Virus genome (UHGV): UHGV-0125592
DNA from: a virus
Length of the DNA: 33,748 nt
Strand: one strand, 5' to 3'
The notes below the pieces were generated by a model that was given only the letters and a program-made list of their open reading frames with translations, had not been told where the DNA came from and did not search any database. Made by a program: the position numbers and the translations under genes. How positions within the stretch are numbered: position 1 is the stretch's first letter; each line of letters begins with the position of its first letter. Positions 22,310 to 33,698 of the stretch are shown here, in pieces.

Positions 22310-23338
22310 TTAAGCTTTCGCAATTACGCCGATCGCCAGCGCCCGATCCATAAAACGCAGTAGCAGCTCAAGCTGCGTACCATGCTTCTGCTCGAATGCT
22401 GGTACATCGGCGTGTAACTCGTCGTGGCACTCTCTGCACAGAGGGATCACGAAGAGGTCATGGGCTTTTGTTGCTGTACCACCCATACCGTGCCCTACGA
22501 TATGGTGCGGATCATCTGCTGGCCGTCGGCAACACTCACAGGGTTGTGTTTTTACCCAGCGGGTGTAAGTCTCATTTATCCAGCGGCGTCGCTTTGGCCT
22601 GAGCATGAAAGATTCTGGAGATTCCGGATCAACAGAGAGCGTGAGGATCTTCTTCGCCTTCTCCTGCACGAGGCTGGTTGCAGACGCTAAAGGCACAATG
22701 TCGCTTTCCCTCATGACAGAGCGGATGTTCTCATCCGGAAGGCGCAGCCCTTTGTGAGCAACGCTTTCCGGAATAACATCAGCCAGGTCGTTTCTGACCA
22801 TCCACCAGCACAGTTCCGGAAGCGTCAGGATATGCGACTCGGGAAAACCAGAATCACGCCGAATGACTTCCAGAATCCAGGATACCAGGTTTCCTGCCGC
22901 TATACCTGCAAGCTGTTCGGTATGCTGCCCCGACAAAGTGTGATCGCAATGCCAGCACAGGCGAATGCTTCCTGGTGGGTGCCGCATTGTTGTGAAGTTC
23001 TTGTCGTGCCACGTTGAATGTGGCCACTGGCATTCAAACCGATTACTCAGCCATTGCTCAAGGGAAGGAAGCCCGCCGGCACGCTGAATAATCCTCTCAT
23101 TCTCGAAGACCTGACGCATTACCGGATCATCAGCCAGCGGCTGAATGGCTGCCGGAACAGCCCCGGTACTGAATGACGCCATTTCTTCTGGTTCAGGCTC
23201 GAGCAGAACGCGACCACGCATGAAGAGGTGCATCAGCTCCGCACCAGGACGGAACAGCACAATCCCCATACGATGGGCGATCTCGGGGGTAAGCAGAGCT
23301 TTCACGCGACCTGCCCCCTGGCAATGTGTTCTGCCCAC
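22310..23338 (-). CDS. DUF968-like protein (YdfU-like) with C-terminal HNH-like Cys/His cluster
   Basis: 342-aa ORF; C-terminus CECCRRPADDPHHIVGHGMGG...CRECHDELH; start uncertain (internal Met codons at 23269 and 23230 possible). Confidence 0.55.
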   Translation of the reverse strand: MGRTHCQGAGRVKALLTPEIAHRMGIVLFRPGAELMHLFMRGRVLLEPEPEEMASFSTGAVPAAIQPLADDPVMRQVFENERIIQRAGGLPSLEQWLSNRFECQWPHSTWHDKNFTTMRHPPGSIRLCWHCDHTLSGQHTEQLAGIAAGNLVSWILEVIRRDSGFPESHILTLPELCWWMVRNDLADVIPESVAHKGLRLPDENIRSVMRESDIVPLASATSLVQEKAKKILTLSVDPESPESFMLRPKRRRWINETYTRWVKTQPCECCRRPADDPHHIVGHGMGGTATKAHDLFVIPLCRECHDELHADVPAFEQKHGTQLELLLRFMDRALAIGVIAKA

Positions 23339-23997
23339 AGTCCACCAATCCAGCGCACGCCTTTCGGCGTGAAGCGTGCCTGGCTGAATGCATGGTTTGA
23401 GGTTACGGATGTGCCGGTTTTCACTTCAAAACGGCCCGCATCAATATGCTGATGCCGTGGGGTCATCGTTCCGCCAAGGCGATACATGATGTCCTTCTCA
23501 AGGAGGAATAGCCGCAGATCAGGCTCTTTGGCCTTAAGCAGTTTTGCCACCTGGCGGAATGACATTGACCCACTGGCTGTACAGTACCGATCAACAAACT
23601 CTACCTTCGGCGCCGCGGCAGCCAGTTCGTTAGTCAACTGCTGTTTTTGTTCTGCAAGGTCAGCTGCAAGACGTAGGGCTTCAGAGAATGATTGAGGAAT
23701 CGTCTGCTGCTGTGCCTGCTCAAGCTCCTGCCAGCGATCAACCAGACGCGCGGTAAACTCCGGCGACAGCTGCGCGACAACGATATAACTGTCCCGCTTC
23801 CCTATCAGATAAACCGATACCGACTGATTGAGATGATTTCTAACTTCCCCCATTGGGGGGAGTTCAATAACACCGCGCTCTGCCAGGCGCTCAATGGACC
23901 GTTTAACATGGTCATGTCTTGATTCCACCAGCTCAGCAATATCGCTGCTGGACATGGTTAACGCTGTTGTTGCTAACTGGCTCATACTTTTCTCCAT
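23302..23997 (-). CDS. Antirepressor-like protein (Rha-type N-terminus plus KilA-C-like C-terminus)
   Basis: N-terminus MSSSDIAELVESRHDHVKRSIERLAERGVI (Rha-like HTH); C-terminus VEFVDRYCTASGSMSFRQVAKLLKAKEPDLRLFLLEKDIMYRLGG (KilA-C-like); start ambiguous among several Met codons. Confidence 0.6.
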   Translation of the reverse strand: MEKSMSQLATTALTMSSSDIAELVESRHDHVKRSIERLAERGVIELPPMGEVRNHLNQSVSVYLIGKRDSYIVVAQLSPEFTARLVDRWQELEQAQQQTIPQSFSEALRLAADLAEQKQQLTNELAAAAPKVEFVDRYCTASGSMSFRQVAKLLKAKEPDLRLFLLEKDIMYRLGGTMTPRHQHIDAGRFEVKTGTSVTSNHAFSQARFTPKGVRWIGGLWAEHIARGQVA

Positions 23998-23998
23998 A

Positions 23999-24385
23999 TC
24001 AGGCGGCTGCACCCGCCGGTTCATATCTGCTGATTGTTATCTCTACCCGACCTTTCGGCACAACGGGTCCCCATTCCACCAGCATGCGCTTAATCTGGCT
24101 GTCGTCTTCCCAGACACCCGCATGCGTCAGCGCGTCAAACAGGGCTTTGTTGTAATTATCGATATCCCGGCGGCGCGCATCCGGCGGGTACAGAGTGATT
24201 TCTACCGCTGCCAGTTCAGTCGATGGCTTCGGGAGACGTCGTAATTGCTCAATGATCGCCACGCAGGCAGCGCTCTGGTATTTACGGCCATCAGCGCTAA
24301 TGAGGTGACGACCGGCCAGCGGCCCCTTGTTAGGGGCGCGCCAGTAGGTGTTCACGCTGGGTGGAAATGGGAGTATGAGCCTCAT
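23999..24385 (-). CDS. rusA: Holliday junction resolvase RusA
   Basis: 128 aa; LPFPPSVNTYWR...DARRRDIDNYNKALFDALTHAGVWEDDSQI matches the RusA catalytic core (E. coli RusA: LPWPPSNNRYYR...[30 protein letters not shown]). Confidence 0.9.
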   Translation of the reverse strand: MRLILPFPPSVNTYWRAPNKGPLAGRHLISADGRKYQSAACVAIIEQLRRLPKPSTELAAVEITLYPPDARRRDIDNYNKALFDALTHAGVWEDDSQIKRMLVEWGPVVPKGRVEITISRYEPAGAAA

Positions 24386-24499: not shown

Positions 24500-25393
24500 T
24501 CACGCATGAGTTACCCCCCGCATGCTGTCGACAAGACCTTGCGCGATTGTGATGATTTCGCTGGTGGCCGTTCGTTCCAGCCATAGTTGATTGATATTGG
24601 CTTTCAGCTTGTTCTGCTGTGGTTCCTCCAGCATGTCAGCCCCTTCCACCTGGTTAAACACAATACCCACCTCAAGTGGCCAGATGCGTGATTCAACTTC
24701 TGGCAATGACAGCGGCACAGCAGCGGGCATTTCACGTGGTTGCACTGCTGGTGGCTGAACCTTCGCGGCGACAAACGTGGCCAGAGCCATAGAAGCACGC
24801 CCTTTTGCCTCCAGTTCTGTGCGGTTGATGTAGCTGAACCGCTCACCACGCCATGACTTATCGAATACAGCTATGGCACCGGCAAAAAACGCGCTGGTGG
24901 GCTTCTGTTTTTCGTCAGCAGGTACAAACCACACAGGCAGATCGAACCCAATGCGCCCGCGAATGAATACAATGTGATCGGCATCTTCCGGCCACCACGT
25001 TTCACTCGGCGCGGCTTTTATCAGGAATACATAGCGACCGCCCTTCTCGCGCTGGGCTGCTGCGTAGTTCATGATGTGCGTCATGCCGGTGATCGCCTGC
25101 TTCTCGTGGTACTGCGAACGGCTATACGGTGGGTTGCCATAGCCAGCGCCACCCAGTTCAGCCAGACGTTCAGACCAGTCCTGCGTCAGCGCGTTATCTT
25201 CGGCGGTGTACCATGCCGGGCATTTCGCGTTGTCGTCGTCAGCAAACAAATCCAGAACTAATGGACCAAATAGCGCGTTAATCCCCCAAAAAAGCAGATC
25301 CGGTGTCCGCCACTGATCGCCAACTTCTTTCAATTCGTGGGCTGGTTGGCTACGCAGTGCCGACAGCGCTAGGCAATATTTATTTGTCATCAT
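24500..25393 (-). CDS. Phage Dam-type N6-adenine DNA methyltransferase
   Basis: NPPY catalytic motif (GYGNPPYSRS) in the N-terminal half of a 297-aa ORF; about 100-aa C-terminal extension of unknown role. Confidence 0.75.
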   Translation of the reverse strand: MMTNKYCLALSALRSQPAHELKEVGDQWRTPDLLFWGINALFGPLVLDLFADDDNAKCPAWYTAEDNALTQDWSERLAELGGAGYGNPPYSRSQYHEKQAITGMTHIMNYAAAQREKGGRYVFLIKAAPSETWWPEDADHIVFIRGRIGFDLPVWFVPADEKQKPTSAFFAGAIAVFDKSWRGERFSYINRTELEAKGRASMALATFVAAKVQPPAVQPREMPAAVPLSLPEVESRIWPLEVGIVFNQVEGADMLEEPQQNKLKANINQLWLERTATSEIITIAQGLVDSMRGVTHA

Positions 25394-27375: not shown

Positions 27376-27467
27376 AGTTCCTCCGGTGTAATGAATGAGA
27401 TAAAGGTAACAAAAGGTACATTAAATAGCAAACAACAGTTACAGAAAAAGGGTGTAACATTGGTTAC
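27376..27467. promoter_or_regulatory. Right operator/promoter region (OR) between cro and cI
   Basis: Operator-like sites AGGTAACAAAAGGTACAT (27404-27421) and the perfect palindrome TGTAAC-ATTG-GTTACA (27454-27469), which overlaps the cI start codon. Confidence 0.55.
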
Positions 27468-28127
27468 ATGAAAACAGAGATGAAAGACCGCATCAGATCC
27501 AGACGAATCCAGCTGGATATAACCCAACTAGCACTGGCTAAAAAGCTTGGTGTAAGCCGTGTATCGGTTACAAAATGGGAAAACGGCACGACTAAGCCTG
27601 ATGGTGAGAACCTTCACCAGTTGGCTCAGGCTCTATCAACAACACCAGAGTGGATACTCTATGGAAGCGGTGATGAGGTCATTGACGACACGCGCGTCGT
27701 GCCTTTTTTGAAACCCCCTGTAGCTGTACCGATCATTTCGGCAGTTCAAGCCGGTTTATGGACGGAAAGCTATGCCTGCTCAAGACTTACAGACGTGATT
27801 TCCTGGACTCAAACAACTGCAAATGTATCGGATGAAGCGTTTGGGTTAGTAGTCCGCGGGGAGTCGATGACTAACCCGCAAGGACTTCCATCTATACCTG
27901 AAGGTTCTATTGTTATAGTCGAGCCCCATTATGGGCAGCTTGATGATCTATATGGGAAAATAGTTGTTGCTATTTTGGATGGGACTTCAGAAGCAACGGT
28001 TAAAAAATTAGTTTGGGATAGCCCCTACTCATACCTAATGCCACTAAATCCGTTATTTAAGCCAATCCAAATTGATGGCAACTGTCGCATTGTCGGAAAA
28101 GTTGTACAAATCACTCAAAACATCTAA
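27468..28127 (+). CDS. cI: CI-type prophage repressor (HTH plus S24 LexA-like autopeptidase domain)
   Basis: N-terminal XRE-type HTH (LDITQLALAKKLGVSRVSVTKWENG), C-terminal S24 domain with Ser (GESM) and Lys (TVKKL) dyad; start codon abuts an operator, suggesting leaderless translation as for lambda cI. Confidence 0.85.
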   Translation: MKTEMKDRIRSRRIQLDITQLALAKKLGVSRVSVTKWENGTTKPDGENLHQLAQALSTTPEWILYGSGDEVIDDTRVVPFLKPPVAVPIISAVQAGLWTESYACSRLTDVISWTQTTANVSDEAFGLVVRGESMTNPQGLPSIPEGSIVIVEPHYGQLDDLYGKIVVAILDGTSEATVKKLVWDSPYSYLMPLNPLFKPIQIDGNCRIVGKVVQITQNI

Positions 28128-28143
28128 TCCCTTCAAAATTAGG

Positions 28144-28168
28144 AGCCGAGCATAGCCTCGGCTTTTTT
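28144..28168 (+). terminator. Intrinsic terminator after cI
   Basis: AGCCGAG-CATAGC-CTCGGCT hairpin followed by TTTTTT, 17 nt after the cI stop. Confidence 0.6.
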
Positions 28169-28177
28169 ACACGTCCA

Positions 28178-28261
28178 AAGGTAACATAAAGTACATTACT
28201 CACTTGACCGCCAAGGTAACTAAAGGTACATTTAAATTATCAAACGTAACCATTGGTACGT
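28178..28261. promoter_or_regulatory. Left operator/promoter region (OL/PL) with three operator sites
   Basis: AAGGTAACATAAAGTACAT (28178-28196), AAGGTAACTAAAGGTACAT (28213-28231), ACGTAACCATTGGTACGT (28244-28261), same family as the OR sites; candidate PL TTGACC (28204-28209) and TACATT (28227-28232). Confidence 0.55.
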
Positions 28262-28359
28262 TTGGTGAAGATAACAAATGCCTTGTATCACTATTCTGGC
28301 GGCCCAGTGTTTTCCCTTGTGTCTGGTTACCGCCAGCCTTTTTTCAAGGCACAACATGA

Positions 28360-28419
28360 AAGCGCACTCCTTCAATTACCAGTTATGGGTGACAGGTGTG
28401 AAACAAGCGGAGTGCGCTT
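28360..28419 (+). other. Long inverted repeat (11-bp stem, about 38-nt loop) in the PL leader
   Basis: AAGCGCACTCC (28360-28370) pairs with GGAGTGCGCTT (28409-28419); a second hairpin CGGCGG-TTGCAG-CCGCC (28442-28457) lies just before the first PL gene. Confidence 0.4.
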
Positions 28420-28475
28420 CCAGTTGAGTATGGAGAAAGATCGGCGGTTGCAGCCGCCTTAACGAGGGTAAAACC

Positions 28476-28847
28476 ATGAGTAATGACCGCATGACCGTAG
28501 TGCCAGATTTTCTTGGCGAACTGGATGCCGGCGTGTTCATGAACAAAATCGCGGCAGCACTTAATACCACCGCGCTTGGTGTTCTAAACAACGGCAACAA
28601 AGGAAAAGTAGTCCTCACCTTTGATTTTGAGCGCATGGGTAATTCCGTTGAAGAGAAGCGCGTCAAGATCAAGCACAAGCTGAACTACAGCACCCCAACA
28701 CCGCGTGGTAAAGCCTCCGAGGAGGACACAACCGAAACCCCGATGTGGGTCAACAAAGGCGGGAAGCTCACCATCCTGCAGGAAGATCAGGGTCAGCTGT
28801 TCGGGATCACTGGCGCGGTGGATGGAAAGCTTAAAGCGGCTCAGTGA
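28476..28847 (+). CDS. Hypothetical protein, first gene of the PL operon
   Basis: 123-aa ORF with GAGGG ribosome-binding site; not Arg-rich, so not N-like. Confidence 0.5.
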   Translation: MSNDRMTVVPDFLGELDAGVFMNKIAAALNTTALGVLNNGNKGKVVLTFDFERMGNSVEEKRVKIKHKLNYSTPTPRGKASEEDTTETPMWVNKGGKLTILQEDQGQLFGITGAVDGKLKAAQ

Positions 28848-28903
28848 TCCGCAACAACAAACTCACTGATACCACTTCGATCATCAGTTAATAAGGAATT
28901 TCT

Positions 28904-29731
28904 ATGTCTCAGTTAGACAGCGGTACATTTCAGCAGGTAAAAGACCTGGTCCTTTCAGGCTACCACCTGAATGATATTCATGGCCTGGCTTGCCCGACCG
29001 CATTGCTGCCAGATGGTACTAGCGTTGAAAGCCTTGAGCGCTTTTCTCTGGAGCGTTTCCGCTTCCGTGGTGCAATGACAACAACCAGTATTGACGACTT
29101 CGCACGTTATTCTAAAGGTTACGCCAGCGCCAGCGAGCCTGCCCGTTGCTTCATTGACGCTGACAACATGACCGCTCGTTCAGTGTTCAACATCGGCACC
29201 CTGGATAATCCCGGCCACGCCGATAACGTTGCTTCGATCACCCTGAAGAAAACCGCCCCGTTCCGCGCGTTACTGCAGATCGATGGTCAACGTCTGAAGC
29301 AAAAGCAAATCGCTGAATGGCTGGAAGACTGGAGTGATTACCTGCTGGCGTTTGACGCCGATGGTAATACGATGCAGATTTCCCAGGCTGCTCAGGCAGT
29401 GCGTCGTATCACCATTCAACAAGCAACCCAGCAGGACCATGAAACTGGTGATTTCGCTGGTAAAAAATCGCTGATGCAAAGCGTTGAAGCAAGCAGCAAA
29501 GACGTAATGCCCGTGGCGTTCGAGTTCAAATGTATGCCGTATGAAGGGCTGGGCGAACGCCGCTTTAGCTTGCGTAACAGCCTGCTGACCAGCGATGAAC
29601 CCTGCTTTGTTCTGCGCATCGTCCAACTGGAAGCACAGGAAGAAGCGATCGCCAACGAATTCCGCGATTTGCTGATCAGCAAGTTCGACGGTGAATCAGT
29701 GGAAACTTTCATCGGTAACTTTAAAGCGTAA
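28904..29731 (+). CDS. DUF2303-like protein (YfdQ-like)
   Basis: 275-aa ORF with AAGGAA ribosome-binding site; size and position match the yfdQ-type gene preceding an HD-domain gene in E. coli cryptic prophages. Confidence 0.5.
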   Translation: MSQLDSGTFQQVKDLVLSGYHLNDIHGLACPTALLPDGTSVESLERFSLERFRFRGAMTTTSIDDFARYSKGYASASEPARCFIDADNMTARSVFNIGTLDNPGHADNVASITLKKTAPFRALLQIDGQRLKQKQIAEWLEDWSDYLLAFDADGNTMQISQAAQAVRRITIQQATQQDHETGDFAGKKSLMQSVEASSKDVMPVAFEFKCMPYEGLGERRFSLRNSLLTSDEPCFVLRIVQLEAQEEAIANEFRDLLISKFDGESVETFIGNFKA

Positions 29732-29859
29732 TTGCTCTGCATTAAATCCCCGGCGCCGCGGGGATTTATTGAAGCGTAATTCCACTAATTATCGCCAACC
29801 GGCGAGGGATTCGTGCAACCAAAATCTGCGCGGTGCAGCGCGCCAATATGGAGAAAACC

Positions 29860-30399
29860 ATGAGCTACATTCAAACATTATCCGGTAAAAAATTTAACTA
29901 CCTGACCGCCACTATCGACGATATCGATGTTGAGGATATCGCGACTGCTCTTTCCAACATCTGTCGATTCGCTGGGCATCTTCCAGAGTTCTACAGCGTG
30001 GCCAAGCACTCTGTGCTTGTAAGCCAGATTGTTCCGCCAGAGTTCGCATTTGAAGCGCTGATGCACGACGCTGCGGAGGCATATTGCCAGGACATTCCTG
30101 CCCCGCTCAAAGCCCTGTTACCAGACTACCAACGCATGGAAACTTATGTTGATGGTCTTATCCGCTTTAAATTCGGTATCTCTCTTGAACAAGCTGCTGT
30201 CGTGAAATATGCCGATCTCACCATGTTAGCCACCGAGCGCCGTGATCTGGAAATCGATGACGGTTCGAAGTGGGAAATTCTCGAAGGTATTCCCTGCTCT
30301 GATCTCGTTCAGGTTATCCCTCTCCGTCCTGGTCAAGCCTATGGCCTGTTCATGAATCGCTTTAACGAACTGATGGATCTGCGCCAATGCGCCGCATGA
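29860..30399 (+). CDS. HD-domain phosphohydrolase (YfdR-like)
   Basis: HD motif (ALMHDAAEAY) with upstream His (AKHSVLVSQ); ATG at 29860 preceded by GGAGAAAACC; the longer ORF from 29833 is an alternative. Confidence 0.65.
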   Translation: MSYIQTLSGKKFNYLTATIDDIDVEDIATALSNICRFAGHLPEFYSVAKHSVLVSQIVPPEFAFEALMHDAAEAYCQDIPAPLKALLPDYQRMETYVDGLIRFKFGISLEQAAVVKYADLTMLATERRDLEIDDGSKWEILEGIPCSDLVQVIPLRPGQAYGLFMNRFNELMDLRQCAA

Positions 30400-30572
30400 A
30401 GGTAAAAGAGCTCGTAGCGGAGGCTTTTACCTCCGTTGCTGAATTACCACCAAAACATGCACCGCTTATGCGCGAAGTCGCCACCAGACTGGACGCTACG
30501 TTCGCAGCATTAAAAGAGTCTCTGGTGCAACTGGAACAGGAACGTAAAGGTAAACGCCATGACCGTATTTGA
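30387..30572 (+). CDS. Small hypothetical protein
   Basis: 61-aa ORF overlapping the end of the HD-domain gene and the start of the next gene. Confidence 0.35.
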   Translation: MRRMKVKELVAEAFTSVAELPPKHAPLMREVATRLDATFAALKESLVQLEQERKGKRHDRI

Positions 30573-30813
30573 ATATCTCCAGGCTCATCCGAATACCACC
30601 AGCGGTGAAATCGCCAAAGGTATGAACAAAAAGACACCCGCGGTCGCTGGCGCATTATCGCAACTCTATGGCACCGGCCGGATCGTGAAATCTGGTGTTC
30701 GCAAGGGAATTCCTACTTACCGTGTTAACGATATGCCGTTTGGGTGTAGTAACAGCCTAACCATGATGTTTAACCAGCTCTTGAACAGAGCCAGAGAAGG
30801 AGCAGCCCAATGA
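30559..30813 (+). CDS. Small winged-helix-like DNA-binding protein (hypothetical)
   Basis: 84 aa; HTH-like segment TSGEIAKGMNKKTPAVAGALSQLYGTGRIVKSG; overlaps neighbours. Confidence 0.4.
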   Translation: MTVFEYLQAHPNTTSGEIAKGMNKKTPAVAGALSQLYGTGRIVKSGVRKGIPTYRVNDMPFGCSNSLTMMFNQLLNRAREGAAQ

Positions 30814-31139
30814 CAGTACTCAATAAACACAGGGAATTGCGCAAAGAGCTTTCAAACCCCGCAATAGGCAGCAATCACCACCTGCGAAAACTGGCCCTGT
30901 CGTTGCTGGATGAGCTGGAAACCAAAGAAGAACAACGCGCCAATTGGTTTCAAATGGCGCAGAAGTTAGGCGAGGATCTGGATGCCGCAGAGAAGCGCAT
31001 AACTGACTATCACACAGTGCTTAACAATCTCGCCGCCGTCGCCCGTCGCTATCTGCCAGATTATGACGAGCATCCTGATATTCAGGCCGCTGACGACTTG
31101 TTAGAAAGCGCCGCTGGCATTGGCGTGAAGGGGGATTGA
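30810..31139 (+). CDS. Hypothetical protein
   Basis: 109-aa ORF, overlapping start/stop with neighbours in the PL operon. Confidence 0.4.
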   Translation: MTVLNKHRELRKELSNPAIGSNHHLRKLALSLLDELETKEEQRANWFQMAQKLGEDLDAAEKRITDYHTVLNNLAAVARRYLPDYDEHPDIQAADDLLESAAGIGVKGD

Positions 31140-31612
31140 TGGCAGAGCAAACAATTTTGGACCTGTGCTGCGGCTCCCGCATGTTCTGGTTCAACAAGCA
31201 GGACACCCGCGCCGTGTTCACTGATATCCGCGCCGAAGAGCATGAGCTGTGCGACGGTCGCCGCCTGGTTATCAGTCCCGACCTGATTGCCGATTTTCGT
31301 TCACTGCCGTTCTCTGACTCTTCTTTTCCGGTTGTGGTGTTTGACCCGCCGCACCTCGAGCGCGTGGGCCAGTCTGCCTGGATGGGTAAAAAATACGGGC
31401 GATTGAACAAAAAAACGTGGCGTTCTGATTTGCGAACAGGATTCAAAGAGGCTTTCCGTGTACTGCGGCCACACGGCGTTCTCATATTCAAATGGAACGA
31501 GACGCAGATCCCGGTTAGCCAGATTTTGGCGCTTACAGATGTAAAACCTGCAATTGGTCAACGTACCGGGAAGAACGACAAAACTCACTGGATTATTTTT
31601 GTGAAGGACTAA
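31136..31612 (+). CDS. Small SAM-dependent DNA methyltransferase (DPPH motif)
   Basis: Motif I-like ILDLCCGS and motif IV VVVFDPPH (amino-methyltransferase type) in a 158-aa protein. Confidence 0.65.
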   Translation: MMAEQTILDLCCGSRMFWFNKQDTRAVFTDIRAEEHELCDGRRLVISPDLIADFRSLPFSDSSFPVVVFDPPHLERVGQSAWMGKKYGRLNKKTWRSDLRTGFKEAFRVLRPHGVLIFKWNETQIPVSQILALTDVKPAIGQRTGKNDKTHWIIFVKD

Positions 31613-31615
31613 CTC

Positions 31616-32050
31616 ATGACAACTAATAACCACCCGGCGCACGGCCCTGTATCACTCGATCGCCTGCACCAGATACGCGAACACCTGCAGCATGATACCC
31701 AGTACTCAAACGGAGGGAACAGAGCTTACATTCTCGCGGATATGTTGAAGGTGGTAGATGAGGTTTTGGCAAGTAGGACCGCCGAGCCAGTGGCAGATGT
31801 CGTTGCCTGGCGCAAAGAAGGTGAAGAAAGAACCTGTGATATACGCTGGCGCCGTTTTGATGTTCAACCTGGCCCCCTTTACGGTGTCCCACCTTCATCG
31901 CGTTTACTCTTAGATGAATTACGTAGGCAGATCGGATCCCTGCTAAATTCTGACGGTTATCGCGGAGCTGATTTCGACTTGCTCGATTACCTGAAAGCTC
32001 GGGACAGCATAGTAGATCTCTTCCATTCATCTAGCTCCTGTAACAGCTAA
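31616..32050 (+). CDS. Hypothetical protein
   Basis: 144-aa ORF between the methyltransferase and excisionase genes. Confidence 0.4.
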   Translation: MTTNNHPAHGPVSLDRLHQIREHLQHDTQYSNGGNRAYILADMLKVVDEVLASRTAEPVADVVAWRKEGEERTCDIRWRRFDVQPGPLYGVPPSSRLLLDELRRQIGSLLNSDGYRGADFDLLDYLKARDSIVDLFHSSSSCNS

Positions 32051-32089
32051 TAATTACCCCGGGTGCAGCCGGGTAATGGATAAATAACC

Positions 32090-32326
32090 ATGAGCAATAT
32101 TTTCCAGTTAGCCCCCAACGAGTGGGTTTGTGAAAGCGTTCTTATCGCGGTTACCGGCCTCAAACCCGGAACCATCCTACGGGCAAGAAAAGAGTGCTGG
32201 ATGGTTGGGAGGGAATATATCCACGTCTCACCAGACGGGAATCCAAAACCGTCCAGTGAGTGCATGTATAACAGAAAGGCTGTAGATGCCTGGGTCGCTT
32301 CAATGAAAAGCAAGCAGCCAGGGTGA
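32090..32326 (+). CDS. xis: Excisionase-like protein
   Basis: 78-aa protein immediately upstream of the integrase; winged-helix-like N-terminus (WVCESVLIAVTGLKPGTILRARKECWMVGREY). Confidence 0.6.
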   Translation: MSNIFQLAPNEWVCESVLIAVTGLKPGTILRARKECWMVGREYIHVSPDGNPKPSSECMYNRKAVDAWVASMKSKQPG

Positions 32327-32384
32327 TTTGATGCCATGAAAAAGGTAAGCTCGTATCGCTCTTGGGCGTCTGGAGGTAACACCA

Positions 32385-33698
32385 ATGGATAAAGTCACAT
32401 ATCCAACAGGCGTCGAAAACCACGGTGGCACATTACGCATCTGGTTTAATTTTAAAGGTAAGCGTGTCAGGGAAAGTCTCGGTGTCCCTGACACCTCTAA
32501 GAACAGGAAGATAGCCGGGGAACTGCGGACATCAGTATGTTTTGCCATCCGCACAGGAACCTTTGATTATGCAACCCAGTTTCCTGACTCCCCTAACCTC
32601 AAGGCTTTTGGTGTAAGTAAAAAAGACATTACAGTAAAAGAACTTGAAGAAAAGTGGCTGGATCTGAAACGGATGGAAATCTGCGCGAACGCATTCAATC
32701 GCTATGAGTCTGTCGCAAGGAATATGGTACCGAGGATCGGAGGTAATCGCCTGGTGTCAGCAGTAACCAAAGAGGAATTGCTGTATCTCAGGAAAGATTT
32801 GCTAACTGGTTACCAGAATCCGACGAAAAACAAATCCCCGGCAAAAGGGCGAAGCGTTGTTACTGTGAACTATTACATGACGACAATGGCCGGAATGTTT
32901 CAGTTTGCTGCGGATCACGGTTACTTAGAGGTGAACCCATTCGAGGGAATTAAGCCTCTGAAAAAAGCCAGGGCAGAACCAGATCCTCTTTCTCGTGATG
33001 AATTTATTCGCCTGATAGATGCATGCCGGCATCAGCAGACTAAAAACCTGTGGTCATTAGCAGTGTACACAGGAATGCGTCACGGGGAACTGGTCTCCCT
33101 GGCCTGGGAAGATATCGATCTGAAGGCGGGAACAATTACCGTCAGGCGTAATTATACGAAACTTGGTGAGTTCACTCTACCGAAAACCGAGGCAAGCACA
33201 GATCGAGTGGTGCATCTTATCCAGCCCGCAATCAGTATCCTGAAAAATCAGGCTGAAATGACAAGGCTGGGCAGGCAACATCGCATTGAAGTTCAGTTAC
33301 GTGAGTATGGCCGTTCGGTGAACCATGAGTGTACATTCGTCTTTAACCCGCATGTGGTCAGACGCAGTAAGCAGGTCGGATTTATCTACCGGGTCGATTC
33401 AGTAGGCGACTCCTGGGAAGCGGCACTAAAGCGCGCGGGGATCAGACATAGAAAGGCGTACCAGTCACGACATACCTATGCGTGCTGGTCATTATCTGCT
33501 GGTGCAAACCCGAGTTTTATTGCCAGTCAGATGGGGCATGCGAGCGCGCAGATGGTGTTCAATGTTTACGGTGCATGGATGGCTGACAGCAGCGCAGAGC
33601 AGATCGCAATGCTCAATCAGAAGCTGGCAGATTTTGCCCCATTGATGCCCCATAGCCACGAGAGCAGTACGGGAGGATTATTAAAATCAGTAAGTTAA
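32385..33698 (+). CDS. int: Tyrosine recombinase / phage integrase
   Basis: 437 aa; N-terminal arm-binding region; catalytic core residues R (TGMRHGEL), H-x-x-R (SRHTYAC) and Tyr (MVFNVYGAWM); GGAGG ribosome-binding site. Confidence 0.85.
   Translation: MDKVTYPTGVENHGGTLRIWFNFKGKRVRESLGVPDTSKNRKIAGELRTSVCFAIRTGTFDYATQFPDSPNLKAFGVSKKDITVKELEEKWLDLKRMEICANAFNRYESVARNMVPRIGGNRLVSAVTKEELLYLRKDLLTGYQNPTKNKSPAKGRSVVTVNYYMTTMAGMFQFAADHGYLEVNPFEGIKPLKKARAEPDPLSRDEFIRLIDACRHQQTKNLWSLAVYTGMRHGELVSLAWEDIDLKAGTITVRRNYTKLGEFTLPKTEASTDRVVHLIQPAISILKNQAEMTRLGRQHRIEVQLREYGRSVNHECTFVFNPHVVRRSKQVGFIYRVDSVGDSWEAALKRAGIRHRKAYQSRHTYACWSLSAGANPSFIASQMGHASAQMVFNVYGAWMADSSAEQIAMLNQKLADFAPLMPHSHESSTGGLLKSVS

Follow-up and report, generated by a model that had tools for sequence, protein, structure and literature searches.

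We analysed the gene cluster around positions 28904-30813 of a 33,748-nt stretch of viral DNA, the UHGV virus genome UHGV-0125592, the whole of which is called the window below. The region is the promoter-proximal segment of a lambda-like prophage's early-left (PL) operon, and the prophage is most likely one of Citrobacter freundii. Our homology searches indicate that the cluster is yfdPQR-like and not yfdQRST-like, with unrelated genes in the positions of yfdS and yfdT. They also indicate that the evolutionarily fixed unit is the pair yfdP-yfdQ, to which yfdR is a separately distributed and optional addition. The best explanation of the whole, to which we give slightly better than an even chance, is that the yfdP-yfdQ pair and yfdR are early host-takeover functions expressed from the PL operon.

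An earlier note on this DNA, made from the letters alone, had described positions 28904-30813 as a cluster like yfdQRST of the cryptic prophage CPS-53/KplE1 of Escherichia coli K-12, opening with a DUF2303-like gene. The DUF2303 assignment is correct: the gene at 28904-29731 (+) encodes a protein of 275 aa that matches Pfam PF10065 with E=1.9e-66, and pairwise alignment with K-12 YfdQ (NC_000913.3) gives 57% identity over the full length (E=2e-112). The bounds are incomplete, as the cluster begins one gene earlier. Directly upstream of yfdQ and on the same strand lies the first gene of the operon, a yfdP homologue of 123 aa (28476-28847, +), 59% identical to K-12 YfdP (E=2e-49) and a member of phrog_204 (E=1e-41). 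Its identity to a Serratia protein that carries the label PF27127 YfdP is 69%, and its own assignment to PF27127 rests on this 59-69% identity to proteins bearing that label.

We searched 50,697 phage records with tblastn, and YfdQ and YfdP were each found in 180 of them. The YfdQ/YfdP records per organism are 53/52 for Escherichia, 26/26 for Stx2a phages, 15/15 for Stx2c phages, 15/15 for Xanthomonas, 32/27 for Vibrio and 5/5 for Pseudomonas. YfdR-like proteins have a different spread, being encoded in 333 records that include phages of Bacillus, Caulobacter and Rhizobium, jumbo phages and others. The genes yfdP and yfdQ are adjacent wherever a locus was inspected, among them six distant ones (a Xanthomonas phage, a Pseudomonas prophage, a Xylella prophage, Serratia, the Stx phage PA2 and a Vibrio podophage), and YfdR is present in only one of these, Serratia. 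Since YfdQ travels with YfdP and not with YfdR, YfdS or YfdT, QRST is probably not the natural unit. The transcription unit of K-12 is listed as yfdPQ (PMC9181523), and a separate yfdPQ unit fits the terminator-like hairpin that follows yfdQ in the window.

The neighbours of the pair in distant phages are RecT and an exonuclease; ERF, YqaJ and SSB; or an epsilon-type exonuclease and SSB. They link the pair to DNA replication or recombination through guilt by association. Because the pair co-exists with complete recombination (Rec) modules, it is not a substitute for such a module, which agrees with the argument of PMC12315714. The Pseudomonas prophage (locus L084, 7460-8668) has no yfdR, and two genes downstream of its yfdQ it encodes a 402-aa protein that carries the motifs DHH and GGGH. 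Judged by eye, this protein is RecJ/NrnA-like, which hints that some phosphoesterase accompanies the pair across lineages. The yfdP-yfdQ-yfdR cluster itself is common and previously described, and near-identical DNA matches to parts of the query region occur in 341 of 5,426 complete E. coli genomes.

YfdQ matches a deposited structure, PDB 9o7m ("YfdQ Protein", E=3.4e-40), whose 36 chains have a single sequence, 99% identical to a protein of the Xanthomonas phage MET23-P3 (locus L003, 10001-10825) and 35% identical to YfdQ of the window. These 36 chains show that YfdQ forms a large assembly or is part of one. The protein chains of the entry are listed from C onwards, so that A and B may be a different molecule; we found no publication for the entry. 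We modelled YfdQ with AlphaFold2 from an alignment of 131 sequences (predicted local distance difference test score, pLDDT, 83.9; predicted template modelling score 0.73), and the model shows an alpha/beta protein in which residues 173-194 form a disordered loop. The invariant residues in this alignment include R53, G56, T60, F66, N96, G104, H105 and D107 (the PGHAD motif) and W143. A Foldseek search of the model against PDB, in a fold library that lacks 9o7m, gave no match, and its matches in BFVD were only DUF2303 or uncharacterised phage proteins, one of them from a Gordonia phage. No fold or sequence similarity to known single-strand annealing proteins (Rad52/RecT/ERF-like) was seen. On this predicted model, YfdQ is an orphan fold. 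The DUF2303 family comprises ~1,400 clusters at 50% identity, almost all of single-domain proteins of ~270 aa. A single-sequence model of YfdP was unusable (pLDDT 39).

The next gene, which the earlier note took to be an HD-domain, YfdR-like gene, is indeed a yfdR homologue (29860-30399, +; 179 aa), with 66% identity to K-12 YfdR over 178 aa in pairwise alignment (E=4e-91). Its start is likely ATG 29860, and GTG 29833 is unlikely, because a GGAG lies 6 nt upstream of the ATG and the start of K-12 YfdR aligns there. The protein is an HD-domain phosphohydrolase of the 5'-deoxynucleotidase (YfbR-like) type. It falls in phrog_318 (E=4e-93), which PHROG names deoxyribonucleoside 5'-monophosphate phosphatase, and it matches Atu1052 (PDB 2gz4) with E=5e-10. 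The HD residues H (in AKH), H69-D70, E73, D78 and K116-x-x-D119 (the KxAD motif) are all present and align with those of Atu1052 and YfbR, so that the metal-binding H, HD and D and the catalytic E expected of an HD 5'-deoxynucleotidase are in place. Against Pfam PF12917 (YfbR-like) it scored 17.0 bits, below the gathering threshold of 25.9 bits. YfdR is best described, from these alignments, as a distant sister group of the 5'-deoxynucleotidases and not a core PF12917 member, with a predicted active site that is intact.

The likeness to yfdQRST holds for Q and R and fails for S and T. The note had also seen small open reading frames (ORFs) overlapping their neighbours after the HD gene, and these exist, with overlaps of 13 nt (30387-30399), 14 nt (30559-30572) and 4 nt (30810-30813). 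The first, of 61 aa (30387-30572, +), overlaps the end of yfdR and belongs to phrog_12248 (E=9e-34); it is a conserved phage protein and not YfdS. The second, of 84 aa (30559-30813, +), is probably a winged-helix protein, falls in phrog_1687 "MarR family" (E=7.6e-25) and is not YfdT; it weakly matches K-12 YfdN at the N-terminus of the latter (E=2e-4). BLASTP with E values up to 10 found no significant similarity of either to YfdS or YfdT, which belong to other PHROG families, phrog_583 and phrog_660. A tblastn search with YfdS and YfdT gave no match in the whole 33.7-kb window. Both small ORFs are real conserved phage genes. We scanned the gene order of 87 loci (80 close viral relatives and other fetched loci) and found P-Q-R-61aa to be the commonest block, with the 61-aa gene after yfdR in most loci and the 84-aa gene next in about half of them.

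The earlier note had mentioned a report that YfdR binds DnaA and that overexpression of the cluster inhibits initiation, and such a report exists: Noguchi & Katayama 2016 (PMC4776307) obtained yfdQRST as a suppressor of hda-185 in multicopy. The minimal set for the phenotype was yfdQ together with yfdR plus one of yfdS and yfdT; yfdP was dispensable and a yfdQR plasmid failed to suppress hda-185. Initiation in E. coli is inhibited when yfdQRT or yfdQRS is present in multicopy, and extracts have an inhibitory effect on oriC replication in vitro. As purified K-12 protein, only YfdR bound DnaA, at domains I-II and in a Phe46-dependent manner; it competes moderately for DnaA against DiaA as well as DnaB and has poor affinity for nucleotides (PMC4776307). 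The window encodes an orthologue of YfdQ with an orthologue of YfdR directly downstream and neither YfdS nor YfdT. Because this third component is absent, the replication phenotype is not transferable by homology. The suggestion that the module may modulate host replication therefore stands only as far as DnaA binding by YfdR, the one property that may reasonably be extrapolated to the window, by the 66% identity. The label "YfdQRST inhibits replication" should not be moved by gene order alone, as the required S or T has been swapped out here.

The window contains 14 Chi sites (GCTGGTGG) where 1.24 are expected, and none of 100 shuffles reached 14. The sites are strand-biased, with 11 on the minus strand (120, 3836, 5114, 9813, 14460, 18478, 22802, 23925, 24076, 26941 and 30596) and three on the plus strand (24560, 24747 and 24893). 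By Pfam and PHROG there is no single-strand annealing protein, exonuclease or anti-RecBCD gene among the ORFs of the PL operon. We found no exo/bet/gam, RecET or Erf genes in the prophage, of which the 5' end of the window may stop short of the end. RusA, in the right operon, is the only recombination-related gene found. Chi-rich lambdoid phages without a Rec module were described in 2025 as the "LLS functional type" (PMC12315714), and the window has both of its marks, an early-left operon free of Rec genes and at least 12 Chi sites. We assign the prophage to this type together with ST64B and phiNP.

Under the explanation that we favour, the LexA-like (S24) repressor would be cleaved, PL would then fire, and YfdP, YfdQ and YfdR would be the first proteins made. 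YfdR would most likely be an early host-takeover enzyme that hydrolyses (deoxy)nucleoside monophosphates. It may also, like its K-12 orthologue, bind domain I of DnaA and thereby weaken the contacts that DnaA makes with DiaA and with DnaB at oriC. YfdP and YfdQ would most likely act jointly, as an oligomeric complex, on replication or recombination intermediates. Because YfdS or YfdT is missing, a block of host initiation as strong as that seen with multicopy yfdQRST may not be assumed. Several points weigh against a takeover role of this kind. K-12 deleted for yfdQRST showed no replication phenotype, and an artefact of overexpression is a possibility that the authors themselves concede (PMC4776307). 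That DnaA binding is kept at 66% identity is an assumption on our part. The consensus DnaA box (TTWTNCACA) does not occur on either strand of the whole window, where 2.6 would be expected; hence nothing else ties the phage to DnaA. One could instead read the four genes at 28904-30813 as a yfdQRST-type unit that jointly blocks initiation at oriC via DnaA. The orthology of YfdQ and YfdR, the overlapping small ORFs that follow yfdR as in CPS-53, and the inhibition by multicopy yfdQRT or yfdQRS and by extracts agree with this. We think it unlikely: YfdS and YfdT are lacking from cluster and window, yfdQR without them does not suppress hda-185, the distribution of YfdQ follows that of YfdP, a protein not needed in the same assay, and not that of R, S or T, and the ORFs after yfdR vary among the 87 scanned loci, 80 of which are close viral relatives.

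An alternative hypothesis could be that YfdP-YfdQ, either alone or joined by YfdR, forms an unrecognised module for recombination or the handling of DNA ends that replaces Red/RecET where the Rec module is absent. The pair sits where exo-bet-gam would be in the PL operon, in a window that has no gene for an annealing protein, an exonuclease or Gam and carries 14 Chi sites against ~1.2 expected, which fits the "LLS functional type" (PMC12315714). RecT, ERF, YqaJ, SSB and exonucleases are neighbours of the pair elsewhere, and the 36 chains of 9o7m imply a large assembly. The occurrence of the pair beside complete Rec modules in other phages, and the lack of fold or sequence similarity of YfdQ to known annealing proteins, make a replacement of this kind improbable in our view. 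We regard as more doubtful still a nucleotide-pool or counter-defence device, in which YfdR would act early in infection to destroy deoxynucleoside monophosphates or nucleotide second messengers, with YfdP and YfdQ neutralising a host defence. The catalytic HD residues of YfdR are intact, its PHROG name points to a phosphatase of such nucleotides, and YfdR-like genes are spread over many lytic and jumbo phages independently of the pair. Very early expression and a mosaic distribution, both typical of anti-defence genes, also count for it. Against this, K-12 YfdR has poor nucleotide affinity, and PADLOC, whose library covers defence and not anti-defence, gave no match, nor did NCBIfam, for P, Q, R or the small ORFs.

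The 128-nt spacer between yfdQ and yfdR (29732-29859, +) is conserved and structured. We aligned 55 distinct versions of it from 81 loci, and RNAalifold gave five pairs with compensatory changes. The minimum free energy of the spacer is -47.3 kcal/mol (z=-2.8). The terminator-like hairpin right after yfdQ (29744-29767, +) has a covarying stem (TCCCC/GGGGA, TGCCC/GGGCA, TACCCC/GGGGTA). The second hairpin (29778-29811, +) also covaries, with UCGCC/GGCGA here, UCACC/GGUGA in K-12 and UUGCC/GGCAA in Serratia. The spacer further contains an invariant stretch, UGAAGCGUAAU (+), and a third hairpin of constant loop and compensatory stem, GCGCG-GUGCAG-CGCGC (29828-29843, +), ahead of the Shine-Dalgarno GGAG of yfdR (29850-29853, +). 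Even K-12 CPS-53 and Serratia retain the structured spacer. Rfam gave no match for the spacer and has no family for hairpins of the third kind. The spacer was also considered as a boxA/boxB (nut) site, and this is unsupported: there is no N-like gene, none of the hairpin loops resembles boxB, and K-12 does not retain the boxA-like stretch.

Four hairpins of the window, among them the third of the spacer, have a 5-bp GC-rich stem and a (G/U)UGCAG loop, and their stems covary from site to site and from phage to phage. All are on the sense strand and end 16-17 nt ahead of an (A/U)AUGGAGAA-type ribosome-binding site with its ATG, the genes concerned being yfdP, yfdR, xis and the antirepressor gene. 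The hairpin of yfdP, GGCGG-UUGCAG-CCGCC (28443-28458, +), ends 17 nt before the ATG and is conserved in relatives, with the compensatory stems ggcga/tcgcc and tggcag/ctgcca. A scan of the sequence placed the others before xis (CCCGG-GUGCAG-CCGGG; 32058-32073, +) and before the Rha/antirepressor gene (24017-24002, -). Block shuffles of the window contain on average 0.42 such hairpins. Across 82 related loci we counted 160 hairpins on the sense strand and four on the antisense strand, with ~25 distinct stem variants around the same loop; these loci are mutually related, and the counts are not independent events. The distance from hairpin to ATG peaks at 16-17 nt (88 of 160). The genes that follow are yfdR (50), yfdP (24), xis (12) and assorted small ORFs (60). 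We read this element as a start-associated RNA hairpin that may have a translational, processing or cassette-junction role, and we found no published description of a repeated (G/U)UGCAG hairpin. The 61-aa protein was considered as its reader and rejected, as 14 loci have hairpins without a 61-aa homologue. In the Rha/KilAC antirepressor gene (23302-24024, -) the start of the longest ORF, ATG 24024, lies upstream of the hairpin, and the hairpin with its ribosome-binding site points to ATG 23985 as the real start.

We put forward, as a tentative possibility, a wider view of these observations. The obligate yfdP-yfdQ pair would be an uncharacterised orphan-fold phage factor, a large homo-oligomer that acts on replication or recombination intermediates and ranges from Enterobacteria to Vibrio and Xanthomonas. 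In this phage group it would be co-expressed with yfdR, xis and the antirepressor via the shared post-transcriptional (G/U)UGCAG hairpin 16-17 nt before the start codon, which an RNA-binding factor might read or which might serve as a cassette junction. The families of the pair, phrog_204 and phrog_210, rank with the largest in PHROG that have no function assigned, and yfdP and yfdQ would be the first PL-expressed genes in a class of Chi-rich phages without a Rec module. Solving the role of YfdP and YfdQ and finding the reader of the hairpin would fill a gap in how such temperate phages take over the cell.

The ORF list places the cluster within one co-directional run of plus-strand genes (27468-33698). 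The order of the operon is PL/OL, yfdP, yfdQ, the structured spacer, yfdR, variable small accessory genes, xis and int. The accessory block continues after the 84-aa ORF with a 109-aa Ead/Ea22-like ORF (30810-31139, +), a 158-aa DNA methyltransferase (31136-31612, +) and a 144-aa ORF to which no function was assigned (31616-32050, +). The ORFs of 61, 84, 109 and 158 aa each overlap the preceding one by 4-14 nt and a gap of 3 nt precedes the 144-aa ORF; the yfdR/yfdS/yfdT junctions of K-12 overlap similarly. The excisionase gene xis (32090-32326, +; Pfam DUF1233, E=2e-32) and the tyrosine integrase gene int (32385-33698, +) close the operon. The run begins with a LexA-type repressor gene (27468-28127, +), with a helix-turn-helix and a peptidase S24 domain. 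The minus strand carries, in the opposite direction, genes for P22-Cro-like, CII-like and replication-initiator-like proteins, Dam, RusA, the antirepressor, DUF968 and antiterminator Q. The closest protein relatives, at 96-98% identity, carry the name Citrobacter freundii.

Directly after the terminator of the repressor gene, a promoter scan gave a putative PL promoter, TTGACC-17 nt-TACATT (28204-28232, +), bracketed or overlapped by two 23-nt operator repeats (28178-28200 and 28213-28235, +). Two more copies of this direct repeat lie between cro and the repressor (cI) gene (27403-27448). From this arrangement we infer that the former would be OL/PL and the latter OR. The leader between PL and yfdP (~240 nt, 28233-28475) has a terminator-like hairpin with a T-run at 28323-28345, and further on an inverted repeat whose 14-nt arms (28357-28370 / 28409-28422) enclose a loop of 38 nt. 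The window has no N-like gene, yet the terminator-like hairpins in this leader and after yfdQ face early transcription. In K-12 the host regulator SrsR binds four TCAGATTTTGC repeats in the yfdO/yfdP spacer (locus L001, 9248-9604; PMC9181523). These repeats stand at the position of the OL operators of the window and may be orphaned operators of the lost CPS-53 repressor. The operator repeats of the window, AAGGTAAC..GTACATT, differ from them in sequence. The K-12 "putative methyltransferase YfdM" (91 aa; locus L001, 8113-8388) is 79% identical to the N-terminus of the 297-aa Dam-family methyltransferase of the window (24500-25393, -). Because of this identity YfdM is a truncated remnant of that Dam-family gene, and CPS-53 and the prophage have more in common than the left operon.

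Among known systems, CPS-53/KplE1 has P, Q and R in the same order as the window, with protein identities of 59%, 57% and 66%, and in both the cluster is placed between the immunity region and xis. The Q-R spacer of CPS-53 is 127 nt long, with the hairpins kept, and small ORFs overlap the end of its yfdR. The difference is that CPS-53 has YfdS (DUF551) and YfdT, whereas the window has the unrelated 61-aa and 84-aa proteins instead, and that CPS-53 is a remnant, whereas the prophage of the window keeps its repressor, operators, xis-adjacent integrase and late genes. The closest relatives in DNA and protein are the early-left clusters of Salmonella phage ST64B (sb35-37), Citrobacter phage phiNP, Escherichia phage LLS (gp37-39) and the Shigella phages SfV and SfIV. 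YfdQ of the window is 92% identical to that of phiNP and 79% identical to that of LLS, and these phages are of the same type as the prophage of the window, without a Rec module and with many Chi sites. The accessory genes after yfdR vary from phage to phage, and no function has been demonstrated for those clusters either.

The HD 5'-deoxynucleotidases of the YfbR and phage T5 Dmp type have in common with YfdR of the window the HD fold, the residues H...HD..E..D...D and the PHROG annotation. YfbR is only 22% identical to it, and DnaA binding has been reported for YfdR only. As a binder of DnaA, YfdR may resemble the domain-I binders that restrain initiation (competition with DiaA, Bacillus subtilis SirA, Dps), in that it may likewise occupy the Phe46 surface used by DiaA and DnaB; lambda P, by contrast, acts on domain III. 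These binders share no sequence relationship with YfdR, whose effect alone is described as moderate and which needed partner proteins in vivo. The start-associated hairpins could be compared, as to placement, with the start-associated sequences (SAS/ESAS) of cluster K mycobacteriophages (PMC3203893), which likewise are a short conserved motif that recurs right before the start codons of some of the genes in one phage group. The motif of the window differs from these in being a hairpin with a constant loop and a covarying stem, in belonging to enterobacterial lambda-like phages, and in its unrelated sequence.

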